The translations under genes were made by a program, and so were the position numbers. A DNA stretch of 64,000 bases from an uncultured Pseudomonadota bacterium. Its GTDB lineage: Bacteria > Vulcanimicrobiota > Vulcanimicrobiia > Eremiobacterales > Eremiobacteraceae. The stretch spans positions 1,440,001-1,504,000 of the forward strand of contig CAVTNB010000001.1 of NCBI GenBank assembly GCA_963736005.1, written 5' to 3'. Numbering within the stretch: the first letter of the stretch is position 1; each line of letters begins with the position of its first letter. Positions 8,448-34,790 of the stretch are shown here, piece by piece. The notes under the pieces are model-generated. The model was not told the DNA's origin, searched no databases, and was given only the letters and a program-made list of their open reading frames with translations.

Positions 8448-9598
8448 ACGCTCAAAGCCTCGGGTTGGGCAACACCAAATGTCTCCAATATTCGGGCGCC
8501 GACTTGCGAAAAGGAATCAAGCGAACCCAATCCACGACCTTCGCTGCCTGGACGATAGTCCAAAAGGGGAACAAACTCCCGCGTGTGATCGCTGCCTGGC
8601 GCCGTTGGATCGCAGCCGTGGTCCGCGGTGACGATAAGACGATCTCCATCGCCGAGCTTGTTCAACATGTCGGGCAGCTCTCTATCAAGCTGGATGAGCG
8701 CCTTGGCATAGCCATCGGCGTCCCGCCGGTGCCCATACTTAGAATCAAAATCGTTCAGATTCGTAAAGCAAAAGCCGCCTATAGGCCGCTCCAACCATTC
8801 GACAGTCCTTCGAACTGCCTCATTATTATCGACCACGCGCCAGCTCTGCGCGATGCCCTTGCCGCAGTAGATGTCGTTAATCTTCCCAATGCCGCTCGTC
8901 GGAACGCCAGCGTTCTGGAGAACTTCTAGCATGCTGGGGGACGGGGGCTCGACGGCAAAGTCGCGACGACCGGACGTGCGATACAGAGCGCCGGGTTTCC
9001 CAGCAAACGGCCGAGCGATAACCCGGTTGACCTGATGGGGCGGTACAAGCATCGCTCGCGCCTTTGCGCACCACTCCCAAAGCGTTTCCACCGGCACGAT
9101 ATCCTCGTGAGCCGCCACCTGAAAAACAGAATCGGCGGACGTATAGACGATGGGGTAGCCTGTTCGCAAATGCTCTCTGCAGAGGCGCTCGATGATTTCC
9201 GTTCCCGAGGCCGCGACATTGCCGAGCGTCTTGCGACCGATGAGTTCTTCGAAACCGCCGATGACCGCGGGCGGAAAGCCATTCGGATAGGTTGGGAATG
9301 CGTGACGCACCGTAATGCCCATCATCTCCCAGTGGCCAGTGACGCTATCCTTACCGTTGCTTGATTCGCGCAGCCGCCCCCAAGACGCAACAGGGTTGGA
9401 CACAGTCGCAACTCCCTTGATGGCTGTGATGTTTCCGAACCCGAGTCGCTCGAAGTTTGGCAAACGCAGGCCGCCAACCGCTTTCGCCGTGTTGCCGATC
9501 GAGTTGAAAGAGGAGAGGTCCGAGTAGGCGGCAGCATCTTCGCTTGCACCAACCCCACCACCGTCGACGACAAGAACAATCGCTTTCGATTGCTTCAT
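8444..9598 (-). CDS. deoB: Phosphopentomutase
   Basis: GKDSVTGHWEMMG, YTSADSVFQVAAHE, RVIARPF, FDSKYGHRRD, TADHGCDPT..DHTRE. Confidence 0.95.
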   Translation of the reverse strand: MKQSKAIVLVVDGGGVGASEDAAAYSDLSSFNSIGNTAKAVGGLRLPNFERLGFGNITAIKGVATVSNPVASWGRLRESSNGKDSVTGHWEMMGITVRHAFPTYPNGFPPAVIGGFEELIGRKTLGNVAASGTEIIERLCREHLRTGYPIVYTSADSVFQVAAHEDIVPVETLWEWCAKARAMLVPPHQVNRVIARPFAGKPGALYRTSGRRDFAVEPPSPSMLEVLQNAGVPTSGIGKINDIYCGKGIAQSWRVVDNNEAVRRTVEWLERPIGGFCFTNLNDFDSKYGHRRDADGYAKALIQLDRELPDMLNKLGDGDRLIVTADHGCDPTAPGSDHTREFVPLLDYRPGSEGRGLGSLDSFSQVGARILETFGVAQPEALSV

Positions 9599-10281
9599 TA
9601 GTAGTCGACATCGACCGGAACGACCCGTTGCGCAGTTGCGCCATCAGCCCGGATCGCGGTCACGACTATCTCGAATTGATGCGTAGGAAGTAAACTCGGT
9701 ACGGTGATGGAGAGTGCAAAGGTCCCTGGCGCAACTTTCGGCACGTTGACTTGGTACGTGCCAATGCGCGCCGTGAGGGCCGCTGCGTTGCTGGTCGTGA
9801 GAATGCGCGCCGAGGCGACGTCGCCTGCGTGAACATGGTCGGGCGAGAATGTGACAGACTGGATTTGCACGGGATCGGTGGGCGTCGCGTAGGGAACTCC
9901 TGGCGGAAGATCGGGATGAGCTGAGCGAATCTGAAGGTTCGCTGCTACATTAGGACTCGAGGGGACCATAAGCGTCGGGTAAGACGTTGGCGCCGAGCGG
10001 ACCTGAGGGCCCACGGTTGCAGTCGGCGTCGAGCGGACCTGAAGGTCCGCTGCTACATTCGGGCTCGAACGGGCCGGAAAGTTTGGTGCGGCGCTGGGTT
10101 TCAAGTGGACTTGAAGGGGCGCTGCTGCACGCGGGCTTGAGCGGACCTGAAGGTCCGCTGCTACATTTGGGCTTGAAACGGGATGCGGATGTGAATGCGG
10201 ACGAACAAACAGCACCACCGCGAGCAGCGCCGCCACCACAAGGGCTACGTACATCACGGATCTTCTCGATGAAAGCAGCAC
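9598..10281 (-). CDS. Membrane-anchored hypothetical protein with a linker built from REP-derived 12-aa repeats and a C-terminal beta-rich domain
   Basis: N-terminal TM segment, repeats of SSPNVAADLQVR; the stop overlaps the deoB start (TAATG). Confidence 0.75.
   Translation of the reverse strand: MLLSSRRSVMYVALVVAALLAVVLFVRPHSHPHPVSSPNVAADLQVRSSPRAAAPLQVHLKPSAAPNFPARSSPNVAADLQVRSTPTATVGPQVRSAPTSYPTLMVPSSPNVAANLQIRSAHPDLPPGVPYATPTDPVQIQSVTFSPDHVHAGDVASARILTTSNAAALTARIGTYQVNVPKVAPGTFALSITVPSLLPTHQFEIVVTAIRADGATAQRVVPVDVDY
9923..10166 (-). repeat. 36-bp tandem array (7 units, 108-bp higher-order period) of REP family A inside a CDS
   Basis: GAGCGGACCTGAAGGTCCGCTGCTACAT at 10031 and 10139, a variant at 9923, degenerate units at 9959, 9995, 10067 and 10103. 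Confidence 0.9.
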
Positions 10282-10400: not shown

Positions 10401-10420
10401 ACGGCGCTTTGGAGAATTTA

Positions 10421-13400
10421 GTGGCACAAGAGATCGGCGCAACAATTGTTCGCGGGCTGCGGACTTGGGACAAAATCGGCGATGCGGCTGCTCAGTTGCG
10501 GTTGCACGCGGCGCTCGATATTGTCGGCGCAGCTGCAGCATCCCGACCGGCGCTTGTGTCTGCGCTTTGGACCGAGCTCGGCGGTCAGTTTCTCGTTTGG
10601 TCGGCGAGTCAAGATGGCGCCGACCGGTTTGCCAATGATTGTTCCTTCTATGCAAGCGAGTTTGGGCCGGTTGTGCACACGCTTCGTCCACGCGACGAAC
10701 AGCAAAACGCCCTCGTCAATCCTACCGAGCGCGCTGACCGAATCGCATTCTTGGATTCTCTTGCGTCTGGGGAGCCGGGCATCTTTTGCGTCTCGCATGC
10801 CGCAGCCCGCCAGCCCTTGCCTGCTAGCCAAGACGTTCGCCGGCGCGGCACGACGTTTGCAGACTGGCCGCGAATACAAGTGGGAAGAAACGCTGCGCGA
10901 CCTGGCTGCGCTCGGCTACGAACGAGTCGACGTCGTCAGCGCGGTCGGTGAATACGCCGTGCGAGGCGGCATCATTGACATCTTTCCCGCAACGGCCGAG
11001 TTCCCGGTTCGGCTCGAGTTCTTCGGAGATCGTGTCGAGCAGATCCGAACCTTTGCGATCGTCACGCAACGCTCGCTCGATGAACTCGAGGCGGTTCGCA
11101 TCACCCCTTGGTCCGAAGGTATTTTTGGCGACGAGCAAGCGGCAATTTGGTCCTATGCGCCCGGAGCCGTTCTGGTCATCGACGACCCCGACACGATCGT
11201 CGCAATCGATCGCGGGTTGCAAGTGGCTCGGGAGCAAGCGACGGTTGCCGCAGCGGATCGCGGAGAAGAGATCGAAGAAGATATAGATGTACCAGCGGAC
11301 CTTCAGGTCCGCTCGGCGCCCGATGATGACGAGAGCGAACCTAAAGGTTGGCTGCTACATACTCTAGATAAACTGCAGGATGCAATAGGCGCGCGAGCCG
11401 TCTGCAGCTTCCACACGAGCGCAGTTGCCGCGCACTTAGGTCCGCACAGCAAAAAGAAGATTGAAACGAGCACCCAGATGGCTCCGGCCTTCGGTCGCAG
11501 CATCGAACGCTTCGTCGAGTACACGCGCGCTGCGATCGCCTCGAAAACGATCCTGGCCATCGCGGCGGTCGGATATCGTCGTATCTCGGAGGTCCTCGAG
11601 GAGCACGACGTATCCGCGACGCCCGTGCCTAAGCGCTTGAAATTGCCACCAGAACGCGGTGCTGTCATCTGCGGCGAAGGAATGATCGATGCCGGCTTTG
11701 TCATCCCGTCGCTTGGCCTCGCGGTCATCGGAGACAACGAACTGTATGGACACCCCGCTCGACGGCATAAACGCAGACCCGCCAAGGAAGGCGTGCCGGT
11801 CAGCGTCGCTGATCTCAATCCTGAAGACTACTTGGTGCACGCGCATCATGGCATCGGTCAGTATCTCGGTTTGGAACACATCATCGTGGAAGACGTGGGT
11901 CGCGACTTCATGCAGCTCGCCTACGCGGGCGGCGACCGCCTCTACGTGCCGGTCGATCAAATGCACTTGGTGCGCAAATATGCGGTCGCTGATGGCGCTG
12001 CTCCCCGGCTTTCCAAGATGGGCGGAAGCGACTGGGTGCGCACCCGCTCCCGCGTCCGCGAGGCTGTCGAGCGAATTGCCGAAGGGTTGGTGCGACTGTA
12101 TGCGGCAAGAGAACTCGCCGTCGGCCACGCCTTTGCCCAAGACACGCCGTGGCAAGCCGAACTCGAAGAGTCGTTTCCTTACGACGAAACACCGGATCAA
12201 GCCGAAACGATTCGCGTCGTCAAAGACGACATGGAGCGTCCGCGTCCTATGGACAGACTCGTGTGCGGCGACGTGGGGTACGGAAAGACCGAAGTAGCCG
12301 TTCGCGCAGCGTTCAAAGCTATCATGGATCGCAAGCAGGTGGCATTGCTTGCACCAACGACCGTGCTCGCGGCGCAGCACTTCCGCACGTTTAGCGAACG
12401 CTTCGCTGCCTATCCCGTGACGATCGCACTCCTCTCCCGCTTTCGTTCCAAGGCCGAGCAGAAAGTATCACTCGCCGGCTTAGCTGATGGAAGCGTCGAT
12501 CTTGTCATCGGAACGCATCGGCTACTGCAACGAGACGTGGGCTTCAAACAACTCGGCTTGCTGATCGTCGATGAAGAGCAGCGTTTCGGCGTCATGCACA
12601 AAGAGCGTCTCAAGGAATTGCGTCAATCAGTCGACGTGATGACGCTGTCGGCCACCCCGATCCCACGCACGCTGCATATGGCCATGGCGGGCGTTCGCGA
12701 TCTCTCCCTCATTCAGACGCCCCCGGCCAATCGCGTCTCCATCAAGACGGTGGTCACACCAAGCAGCGATGCGCTCATTTCGAGCGCGCTGACGCAAGAA
12801 CTCGACCGCGGCGGGCAAGTCTATTTCGTGCACAACCGCATCGATACGATCTACGGCGTCGCTGCGGCGCTTGGAGCGCTGGCTCCACGCGCGCGCATCG
12901 GCGTCGGCCACGGGCAAATGCACGGTGCATGAACTCGAAGACATCATGCTGTCGTTTGTGAACGGCGAGATCGACATCTTGGTGTCCACGACGATCATTG
13001 AAAACGGACTCGATATTCCAAACGTCAACACGATCATCGTCAACAACGCAGATCACTTCGGGTTAGCGCAACTCTATCAGCTTCGCGGTCGCGTGGGCCG
13101 CAGCGCTCACCAAGCGTTTGCGTATTTCTTGTACCAGCCGCACCGATCGCTTTCCGAGGTAGCCCAATCGAGACTGGAGGCCATCCGCGAGTTTTCGCAT
13201 TTGGGCTCGGGCTTGCAACTTGCCATGCGCGACCTGGAAATCCGGGGTGCAGGAAATTTGCTGGGCCGCGAGCAGAGCGGCTTCATTGCCGCCGTTGGTT
13301 TCGAGACATACTGCGAGATTTTGCAAGAAGCCGTGGCGCAACGCCGCGGGCAGCCGATCGTCCAAGACGTACCGCCGCCGGTTCTCGACGTGCGGGTGAG

Positions 13401-13800
13401 CGCATTCATTCCGAGTGAGTACGTGAAAGGTGCAAGTCAGAAGATTTCGTTCTACCAACGAATTGGAGCGGCACAATCGATCGAAGAGGTCGATCGCCTT
13501 GCTGAAGAGCTGCGCGACCGTTTTGGTCCGCTGCCCTCAGAAGTGGTTGCGCTCCTCGATTTGACCAAGTTGCGCGTTCTCGCAACCGCTAAAGGAGTAC
13601 AAAAAGTTGCACTCGAACAGCGACGTCTAACCCTCGAAATGGGGCCGAAGTTTTTATTGTCCGAAGAGGCCCTTCCAAAGCTAACATCCATCAGCGAGGG
13701 AAATTTCCGGTTCACAAAGGACGCGGTCGTGGTGGGTCTTCCCGACTCGAACGCAGGTGGCCGGCTGGCGTTCGTGCGTGATGTTGTGTCCGCGCTGTGA
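10421..13800 (+). CDS. mfd: Transcription-repair coupling factor (two probable sequencing frameshifts, near 10850 and 12925)
   Basis: GEYAVRGGIIDIFP, VHAHHGIG (RID), DRLVCGDVGYGKTEVA, DEEQRFGV, QLRGRVGRS, DLEIRGAGNLLG. GTG 10421 follows GGAG; ATG 10355 is an alternative start. Confidence 0.95.
11287..11360. repeat. Inverted pair of family A REPs (REPIN-like) translated within mfd
   Basis: ATGTACCAGCGGACCTTCAGGTCCGCTC (11287..11314), 18-nt spacer, GAGCGAACCTAAAGGTTGGCTGCTACAT (11333..11360). Confidence 0.88.
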
Positions 13801-13806
13801 CGCAAC

Positions 13807-13852
13807 CTAGCCTCGCGAATTTATTTGTAGGGGGCGATTGGAAAATCGCCCC
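13807..13852 (+). repeat. REP cluster: partial family B plus family C
   Basis: CTAGCCTCGCGAATTTATTT followed by GTAG-GGGGCGATT-GGAA-AATCGCCCC, directly before the prsA RBS. Confidence 0.85.
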
Positions 13853-18352: not shown

Positions 18353-18434
18353 GGAGCGGCGGACCACGTTGTAGCGGGCGACTGTAAAGTCGCCCTTGTA
18401 GGGGGCGATTCGAAAATCTCCCCACGTCCGCTCC
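18353..18434 (+). repeat. REP cluster D + C enclosed by inverted arms resembling family A
   Basis: GTAGCGGGCGACTGTAAAGTCGCCC (18371..18395) and GTAGGGGGCGATTCGAAAATCTCCCC (18398..18423), flanked by GGAGCGGCGGAC and GTCCGCTCC. Confidence 0.85.
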
Positions 18435-20699: not shown

Positions 20700-21505
20700 C
20701 GCGGCGCAGCCGCTGTTCGCCGCCAACTGGAAGATGAACAAGACGCCGGCACAGGCGCGCGCGATTTCGTCGCACGCATTCATGGGCCGCCGCGGAGCCG
20801 CTCGCTCGCCGCCGCGGACATCGTGCTGCTCGCGCCGTTCATGTCGACTCGAAGCGTTGCACGCGAGTCTCGCGCCGAGCACGAGTGCGCGATCGGCGCG
20901 CAGGACTGTTACTGGGAACCGCAGGGCGCTACACCGGCGAAATGAGCGCGGCCATGCTCGCGGCCGAGGGCTGCACGTATTGCATCGTCGGCCATTCGGA
21001 GCGACGTCGTTTGTTCGGCGAGACCGATGAGGACGTCGCCCGAAAGTCTCCGCGCTCTTGGCGGCCGGGCGTAACCCCGATCGTGTGCGTCGGCGAGACG
21101 CTCGAGGAAAAGCAGCCGGGCGTGACCGCGCAGCGAGTGGCCTGCGCAGATCGCCGACGGCCTAGGGTCATCTCGACGACGATCAGCGCGCGGAGACGTG
21201 GATCGCCTACGAGCCGATGTGGGCAATCGGCACCGGCCTCTCCGACGATCCCGACGGCGGCGAACGAGACGATCGCCTCATCCGCGCTTGACGCTCGGCG
21301 GACTCTGCCGACGCGCCCGCATCCTCTACGGCGGATCGATGAAGGCCGAGAACGCCGGCGCATACTGCGCGCAGCCGAAATCGACGGCGGACTCGTCGGC
21401 GGCGCGAGCCTCGACCCGCGAGCGTTTTTGACCCTCATCATGAACGGCCTCAAGAAAATGTGGGGCGATCGGAAAATCGCCCCACATCGTAGCGGGCGAC
21501 TGTAA
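20696..21505 (+). CDS. tpiA: Triosephosphate isomerase (frameshifted)
   Basis: [42 protein letters not shown]. Confidence 0.9.
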
Positions 21506-21513
21506 AGTCGCCC
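21460..21513 (+). repeat. REP cluster C + D at the tpiA/gpmI junction
   Basis: GTGGGGCGATCGGAAAATCGCCCC followed by GTAGCGGGCGACTGTAAAGTCGCCC (21489..21513). Confidence 0.85.
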
Positions 21514-21529
21514 ACGCTCGAGGAGATCT

Positions 21530-23749: not shown

Positions 23750-23805
23750 ACGCTTTCGTGTTTGACAGTCGCTGCCCCGATCACTCGCGGGTGCAGGAGC
23801 GCGTT

Positions 23806-23832
23806 AGCGGACCTAAAGGTCCGCTGCTACAT
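23806..23832 (-). repeat. REP family A, intergenic copy
   Basis: AGCGGACCTAAAGGTCCGCTGCTACAT (GTAG on the minus strand). Confidence 0.9.
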
Positions 23833-32316: not shown

Positions 32317-33189
32317 TTGCTCGCGTTGCTAGCTACGGGCGCTCATTGGTTTTCGTATCCAAACATCAACCCGGTGGCGTTTCATGTGGGACCGCTGCCC
32401 ATCCGTTGGTATGGCCTTAGTTACCTTTTCGGCGCAATTCTCGTGTACCTCCAGTTGCAGAGCGGCCGCAGTCGAGAACGCACAGGTTTGACGATCGACC
32501 AGGCGCAGGAGCTCGTGGTCTATGCCATGATCGGCGTCATCGTTGGTGGCCGGCTGTTCTTTTTGATTGCTGACATGCTCACGCCAGCGAGCGCGGGCGG
32601 CCACCCGCCGTCTTACTACGCTGCGAATCCGTTGGAGATCATTGCGATATGGCACGGCGGCATGGCCTTTCATGGAGGTTTCATCGGCGCGCTGATCGGT
32701 ATTTGGCTCTTCCTTCGTCGCACGAAATTCAGTTTCTATCGCGTGACAGATGAAATCGCGCTGTGGATACCCGTCGCTATAGCCGCAACGCGCGTCGTCA
32801 ACTTCATCAATGATGAACTGCCAGGCCGCAAAACGGACTCGCCTGTCGGCATTCTTTTCCCATGCTGCGATGGCTATCGGTACCCATCGCAGATCTTTGA
32901 AGCCATCGGCATGCTTGCGTTTGTGCTTCCTCTGTTGTGGATCTTGCATGGCTCGGGCAAGCGGCGCGACGGGCTTTTGCTCTGGGCTTTTATCGCGGGC
33001 TACGGCCTCGTGCGTACGATCGTGGAGTTCTATCGCGAGCCGGGCATCATCGTGCTTGGACTCACCGGCGCACAGTATCTGACGCTCGCCATGCTCATCG
33101 TTGGGCTTGTCATGATGTGGCGGGTGCAACAAGCACCGATCGCGCCGCCGCGCACGAGCACATCCGGTCGCCTAATCAAACCCTTGTAG
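32317..33189 (+). CDS. lgt: Prolipoprotein diacylglyceryl transferase
   Basis: IRWYGLSY, IWHGGMAFHGG, NFINDEL, YPSQIFEA, VEFYREP. Confidence 0.93.
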   Translation: MLALLATGAHWFSYPNINPVAFHVGPLPIRWYGLSYLFGAILVYLQLQSGRSRERTGLTIDQAQELVVYAMIGVIVGGRLFFLIADMLTPASAGGHPPSYYAANPLEIIAIWHGGMAFHGGFIGALIGIWLFLRRTKFSFYRVTDEIALWIPVAIAATRVVNFINDELPGRKTDSPVGILFPCCDGYRYPSQIFEAIGMLAFVLPLLWILHGSGKRRDGLLLWAFIAGYGLVRTIVEFYREPGIIVLGLTGAQYLTLAMLIVGLVMMWRVQQAPIAPPRTSTSGRLIKPL

Positions 33190-33267
33190 TCGCGCGAATT
33201 TATTCGCGCGTGTAGGGGGCGATTGGAAAATCGCCCCACGTCGTAGCGGGCGACTGTTAAGTCGCCC
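33186..33267 (+). repeat. REP cluster B-C-D, head to tail
   Basis: GTAGTCGCGCGAATTTATTCGCGCG; GTAGGGGGCGATTGGAAAATCGCCCC; GTAGCGGGCGACTGTTAAGTCGCCC. Confidence 0.92.
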
Positions 33268-33287
33268 AAACGTCTGGAGGATTATAT

Positions 33288-34376: not shown

Positions 34377-34705
34377 CAACGGTAATCGTCGCGCATCAAC
34401 CTGCTGACCGTGCGTCCCTGTCTCTTCGAGCCGGCGAAGCAGTGGTGGTCGGAGGTCGCGACGACGAGTGGCCCGCATTTATGTGGTGCTCATGCGCCAA
34501 GGGCGAGGCGTGGATCCCAGACGCTTACATGACGATTGAGGCAAACGTGGGGAAGATACAGCGCGACTACTCGTCGCGAGAGCTGGCAGTCGCTTCAGGT
34601 GACTCGGTGAGCGTGCTCGAGCGATGTGGCGGGTGGGCGTTTTGCGACTTCAACAACGAGCAGGGTTGGATTCCCGAGCGGTGCTTGGGGGGTGAGCGGA
34701 CCTAA
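34373..34705 (+). CDS. Tandem SH3-domain protein
   Basis: GTGA overlap; GEAWIP, RDYSSRELAV..GD.V, GWIP. The stop lies in a REP loop. Confidence 0.75.
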   Translation: MTTVIVAHQPADRASLSLRAGEAVVVGGRDDEWPAFMWCSCAKGEAWIPDAYMTIEANVGKIQRDYSSRELAVASGDSVSVLERCGGWAFCDFNNEQGWIPERCLGGERT

Positions 34706-34790
34706 AGGTCCGCTGCTACATGGACCACGCTCGCGAATAAAATTCGCGCGACTACATGGATCTTGGGGCGATTTTCCAATCGCCCCTTAC
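34694..34790 (-). repeat. REP cluster C-B-A, head to tail on the minus strand
   Basis: GAGCGGACCTAAAGGTCCGCTGCTACAT; CGCTCGCGAATAAAATTCGCGCGACTAC; GGGGCGATTTTCCAATCGCCCCTTAC. Confidence 0.92.

Follow-up and report, generated by a model that had tools for sequence, protein, structure and literature searches.

The locus examined here raises the question of how mobile hairpin DNA can come to lie, and apparently to be translated, inside a core gene. The window, a 64,000-nt stretch of an Eremiobacteraceae genome (G000), contains mfd, and within this gene we found two copies of a repeat, REP-A, that also occurs elsewhere in the window (Table 1). As a sequence-only reading of the window had reported, the two copies are inverted, 18 nt apart and in frame; their tags point outward. 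Read from 11286 across the pair, the mfd frame gives DVPADLQVRSAPDDDESEPKGWLLH, and the same frame encodes the UvrB-interaction, RID and DEAD domains, which suggests, this being an open frame in mid-gene, that the pair is translated into protein. Relative to the reference copy at 34694, copy A differs at 2 of 28 positions and copy B at 3 of 28. As DNA, the pair folds into a single long hairpin, and the spacer together with its flanks occurs once genome-wide at ≤6 mismatches. The stem of copy B has one mismatch in G000 and is perfect in L113, a metagenome contig of 95.6% nucleotide identity. An assembly artefact as the source of the pair was ruled out, since L113 has the same pair. Copy A has the loop allele TTCAG, a minority form (37/200 REP-A copies) that is stop-free in the mfd frame. 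We considered this allele as a sign of selection and rejected it: it is present in 4/4 copies read in that frame, but an open frame is itself a filter, which makes the argument circular. Other REP families are found in the window at 13826, 18370–18423, 21457–21514, 33185–33268, 34764, 45341 and 58727, often adjoining one another in mixed clusters.

Table 1. The mfd region and the REP-A copies referred to in the text, in window coordinates.
Feature	Position	Strand	Remarks
Divergent gene adjoining mfd	9598..10281	−	Pro/Ser linker of tandem 36-nt REP-A units (9923–10166), apparently translated
mfd (transcription-repair coupling factor)	10421..13800	+	Domains UvrB_inter, RID, DEAD, Helicase_C and TRCF on the window's pieces
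Hypervariable, predicted-disordered Mfd loop	11259..11348	+	Between UvrB-interaction domain and RID-proximal region; model residues 139–168
REP-A copy A	11287..11314	+	28-nt unit; 9-bp stem; tag GTAG changed to GTAC; reads VPADLQVRS
Spacer between copies A and B	11315..11332	+	18 nt; encodes APDDDE
REP-A copy B	11333..11360	−	GTAG tag intact; gene strand reads SEPKGWLLH
REP-A copy cited in the sequence-only reading	23805..23832	−	1 mismatch vs 34694 copy
REP-A reference copy	34694..34721	−	

REP-A gave 190 matches at ≤5 mismatches in the 2.84-Mb genome, while five shuffled REP-A patterns gave none at ≤6 mismatches and one at 7. A census at ≤4 mismatches counted 200 copies, with the GTAG tag in 167 of them. 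The repeat unit (9-bp stem, 2-nt loop, 28 nt) is within the ranges given for GTAG REPs in Table 1 of PMC3733652 (stem 5–13 bp, unit 20–40 nt). G000 holds five abundant GTAG families, amounting to 729 copies in 491 clusters, and three genes that score above the NF047646 cut-off for RAYT (C1:912314, C1:1990631 and C3:138044; L031–L033), each bordered by a different REP family that is its cognate. The gene at C3:138044 (L033) is a 157-aa frame scoring 104.5 bits (cut-off 80), with REP-A arrays on both sides. By its tag, stem-loop, copy number, mostly extragenic location and flanked cognate RAYT gene, REP-A is a true GTAG-tagged REP. The REP/RAYT perfect-palindrome group described in PMC8266576 likewise has a GTAG-tagged perfect stem and, on the two sides of its HUH Y1 nuclease gene, cognate REPs in inverted orientation; unlike in that group, the tag of copy A is GTAC. 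On the same L033 locus (14–887, −), a topoisomerase I-like frame seems to shift, probably through another assembly indel of the kind discussed below for mfd.

Tag-outward inverted REP pairs number 14 in G000, against none in the opposite arrangement, and the other inverted REP pairs in this genome have spacers of 5–34 nt. Two inverted REPs with a short spacer constitute a REPIN doublet. The mfd pair shares this arrangement with REPINs and BIMEs (for BIMEs, PMC3333891), and differs from a mobile doublet of this type in that its spacer is single-copy. It had been proposed that a mobile REP doublet was inserted into mfd. The presence of a cognate RAYT gene supports the origin of the pair in REP DNA. 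Insertion as one unit finds no such support in the spacer, which is single-copy in G000, so that the separate arrival of two REPs on either side of older loop DNA is just as possible as that of one doublet. We found no alignable empty allele for the mfd pair, and no empty and filled alleles that could be cleanly matched at exact junctions. The GTAG motif guides TnpA-REP to the short sites at which it cuts single-stranded REP substrates, and altering either of the final two positions of the tag strongly impaired cutting by one enzyme (PMC8266576), so copy A, with its GTAC tag, is probably immobile.

In the window's assembly mfd runs through three reading frames, the breaks lying near 10825 and 12924. 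Its start, a GTG, was assigned from a GGAG motif and from relatives; a difference at 10414, the third, precedes this start and was not counted as a frame break. L113 carries the same REP pair in an unbroken mfd frame of 1146 codons, the product of which scores 1016.4 bits against TIGR00580 (equivalog cut-off 800). Contigs from run X1 are without both extra bases, and a 339-nt contig from run X2, with one other difference, is without the base at 12924; L113 and the X1 contig share an indel pattern, may be one population and were counted once. Of the 650 mfd codons compared between G000 and L113 outside the loop, 72 differ synonymously and 10 non-synonymously, a strong signal suggesting purifying selection there, while the 40 loop codons show 2 synonymous and 3 non-synonymous differences (Fisher p = 0.022 versus outside, resting on five loop differences). 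Two of these three non-synonymous differences break REP stem pairs. We found 16 frame breaks in 233 kb of the assembly, affecting 13 of 194 genes, from which ~0.23 breaks would be expected in the 3.4 kb of mfd. Because its two breaks exceed this expectation, strain-specific decay of mfd keeps some weight, and the assembly shows no break in valS, smc, uvrA or polA. Yet there is only a very slight chance that mfd is a pseudogene in the G000 strain and the REP pair untranslated, given the X1 and X2 contigs, the intact L113 gene and the purifying signal between the two sequences; even if it were, the pair would be older than the breaks. The two frameshifts are probably assembly errors, which is far likelier than strain-specific decay. 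That the pair is tolerated, as had been suggested from the window, fits its presence in the intact L113 gene under purifying selection.

The pair had further been placed in a variable region of Mfd, and both alignment and structure prediction bear this out. The loop is hypervariable in all aligned members of the family to which G000 belongs (f1); in f2, the sister family, most rows have a conserved sequence at this place. AlphaFold2, with a 27-sequence alignment, gave pLDDT < 50 across the loop residues, which cover most of the REP-coded stretch (148–172). A fold search confirmed Mfd/UvrB without positioning the loop at the level of residues, and profile alignment to solved Mfd was unreliable across it. 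The expected insertion of ~25 aa did not materialise. Measured from anchor to anchor, the segment is 77 aa in G000, 69 and 68 aa in two congeners (G003 and G001) and 79 aa in a sister species (G002), and the median anchored length is 76 aa in 9 REP-bearing versus 73 aa in 13 library-negative genomes. A run X3 contig of a relative shows a replacement of 193 nt by 199 nt at the loop. These anchored lengths and the X3 contig rule out a net 25-aa insertion. As the G000 segment has 8–9 aa more than that of the two congeners but 2 aa fewer than that of G002, the REP-coded residues appear largely to have replaced a degenerate acidic loop. The peptide encoded by the spacer seems to resemble the acidic Mfd loop of REP-free relatives.

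Repeat DNA is present in the Mfd loop in 12 of the 23 family genomes with a readable loop. Library REPs are there in 9/22 f1 genomes, a count favoured by the 17-motif library having been drawn partly from Mfd loops themselves. In G002, the sister species by tree, the loop has three copies, which belong to two other families (41 and 83 genomic matches, from overlapping patterns). The single copy in G001 is degenerate and of REP-A type, shifted by 9 nt from the register of copy B, and its family has 53 copies in that genome. In G009 the loop contains a tandem whose family numbers 86 copies in that genome and none in four other genomes tested. G006, G015 and G021 have a loop family in common (258, 133 and 122 genomic copies, respectively), with tandem amplification in the G015 loop, and the loop family of G005 and G020 (21 and 20 genomic copies) does not occur in the loop of G014 or G024, which belong to the same genus. 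Three of these loop families flank RAYT genes within the same genus. Three genomes of genus g5 (G016, G007 and G022; L258–L263) have a ~105-nt low-copy repeat in the loop, reversed in G022 relative to the other two; it matched no Rfam family at gathering score, and no RAYT was found in these three genomes. This repeat is without a GTAG tag and is apparently in frame in a second gene too. A DNA search of two of the 11 loops without a repeat, those of G003 and G018, found no repeat family, G023 gave no match and the G017 loop was left out; G008, G011 and G013 enter only the denominators, length medians, tree and control-gene counts. We dropped as chance or extragenic the 5-mismatch or conserved-motif matches in mfd (G003 aa 800, G016 aa 498, G007 aa 84), smc (two) and valS (one), as well as a G019 match before the probable start. 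The loop states fall on separate branches of the tree, and their families, frames and strands differ, with no common peptide, suggesting at least six or seven independent events. Of the 24 relatives, 15 gave a RAYT gene. With G000 set aside, a library REP is in the loop in 8/15 RAYT-bearing versus 0/6 RAYT-less genomes, a comparison in which the p of 0.046 exaggerates the association, as kin are not independent.

Repeated use of one site was not confined to mfd. Counting library REPs at the best site of each gene, we found the Mfd loop occupied in 9/22 genomes, valS in 3/21, smc in 2/25, uvrA in 3/24 and polA in 1/25, where mfd, valS and smc had been chosen because G000 carries a REP there; the reversed library gave 0, 0, 0, 0 and 1 matches on the five genes. 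A 5-mismatch G022 match at the valS site was left uncounted, and a 5-mismatch G006 match at the uvrA site, which coincides with two others, was counted. Near aa 621 of valS (L115), G000 and G002 have the same REP family and G001 another, and near aa 312 of uvrA (L216, L225 and L229) REP-derived inserts occur in genera g3 and g4. There is one shared REP site in smc and one match in polA, and mfd itself has REPs at two additional sites, one in G024 and one in G009. Loop reuse is thus a habit of the family, with the Mfd loop as the busiest site among the five genes tested. Because this loop has more matches than the best site of any of the four control genes, tolerance by itself may fall short as an explanation. 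Conceivably, a REP or hairpin relic in the loop attracts further RAYT events ('REP begets REP') beyond what neutral DNA of equal size would receive, which would be in keeping with the mixing of REP families in 108 of the 162 multi-copy clusters of G000, the two families in the G002 loop and the tandem in G015. We consider such targeting unlikely, however, since 11 of the 23 loops have no repeat, seven of them in genomes with a RAYT gene, and the g5 element is of a different kind; a free loop of ~110 nt is also sizeable as a target, and a coding frame may preserve copies for longer.

Within G000, 31 of the 491 REP clusters (five families) pass a coding filter, an approximate figure obtained with no gene caller. 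The other candidate genes number 29, four of them without a Pfam hit, and some may be start or frameshift artefacts. By Pfam names, from which we interpreted the symbols, REP-bearing genes include valS, leuS, gltX, smc, lhr, truB, rsmB, dprA, dapF, nuoG and sucA, along with genes for a dnaE-type polymerase, a Y-family polymerase and a UvrD-like helicase. A proteome search for peptides of the ADLQVRS and PKGxLLH types, suggested in the sequence-only reading, showed that both recur elsewhere in G000. In-frame REPs in essential or repair genes were seen at L115 (valS), L130 (smc hinge, aa ~547), L134 (leuS), L131 (gltX-like), L118, L119 and L123.

These genes bear on whether the inserts are adaptive, altering Mfd activity, or modulating translation or stability through an mRNA hairpin. 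It has been speculated that REPs in repair genes shift mutability, and a bias towards DNA synthesis and repair is reported in PMC3733652; the polymerase, helicase, lhr, smc and dprA genes listed above and the long DNA hairpin formed by the mfd pair could be taken in the same sense. We nevertheless regard such tuning as highly improbable, as no peptide is common to the lineages, both strands and several frames are used, and stems and tag are decaying, while many of the REP-bearing genes (valS, leuS, gltX, dapF, nuoG and sucA) are unrelated to repair and long multidomain genes may simply provide more loops. It is also quite doubtful that the Mfd loop is a preferred, self-renewing landing site that each lineage's REP family rewrites, with effects on repair or mutation rate; if this were true, a natural allelic series would be available to test the tuning of mutability by REPs in repair genes.

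We favour instead, with a probability of about 0.7, a near-neutral and permissive Mfd loop that mobile repeats have passively and repeatedly recolonised. The Mfd segment behind the UvrB-interaction domain would have decayed to an acidic loop of free sequence, as the alignment indicates, with disorder predicted. RAYT-mobilised REPs would land in this loop as they do in intergenic DNA, and only frame-keeping, stop-free insertions would survive. Neighbouring loop DNA would be lost in frame, and the loop would turn over without growing, in keeping with the net lengths. Afterwards the REP copies would decay, as observed for tag and stem, and the peptide that they encode would be tolerated filler without specific function. 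The locus may offer a comparative case in which selfish hairpin DNA writes new peptide by repeated loop replacement, not by lasting insertion, and the loop would mark a site in Mfd that accepts arbitrary peptide. With REP-bearing and REP-free alleles at hand in close relatives, the published but untested proposal that REP inserts in repair genes are functional can be put to the test.

Intragenic REPs read in frame are already known, and what the present analysis adds is that a single loop has turned over throughout a family. The sequence-only reading had worked from the premise that in-frame cases are best known from Rickettsia, which was incomplete: GTAG REP dimers inside repair genes are catalogued by Di Nocera, De Gregorio and Rocco (2013, PMC3733652), according to whom more than half of the intragenic GTAG REPs are dimers or groups encoding 20–30 aa, and many are in DNA synthesis/repair genes. 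In the same catalogue, different REPs are found at about the same site of recB in two Xanthomonas species. The REPs described here are like those in having a GTAG tag, a short stem-loop, repeat-specific RAYT genes and dimers of 20–30 aa, and repair genes, truB, tRNA synthetases and helicases are targets in both PMC3733652 and G000, with dnaE2 also listed in PMC3733652. They differ from the cases presented there in belonging to a new lineage, and in the turnover of one site without net growth through what appear to be at least six or seven events in one family. A term search of four supplements of PMC3733652 did not find mfd, and a literature search, which covered few subscription journals, found no paper on REPs in the Eremiobacteraceae lineage or in mfd. 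In-frame repeat fusions are reviewed in PMC3184786. Like the mfd pair, Rickettsia palindromic elements (RPEs) are palindromic repeats translated in frame inside functional proteins (PMC3733652, PMC3184786), but their units measure ~105–146 nt (PMC3184786), whereas those of REP-A measure 28 nt, carry a GTAG tag and are linked to RAYT; in size, the g5 element of ~105 nt comes nearer to RPEs than REP-A does.

REP-A was also found in the gene divergent from mfd (Table 1), which has a conserved C-terminal domain without a Pfam family and failed the coding filter of the REP census. In L113 its REP units are different in number and sequence, and a short form of the gene, lacking the linker, occurs in two congeners.
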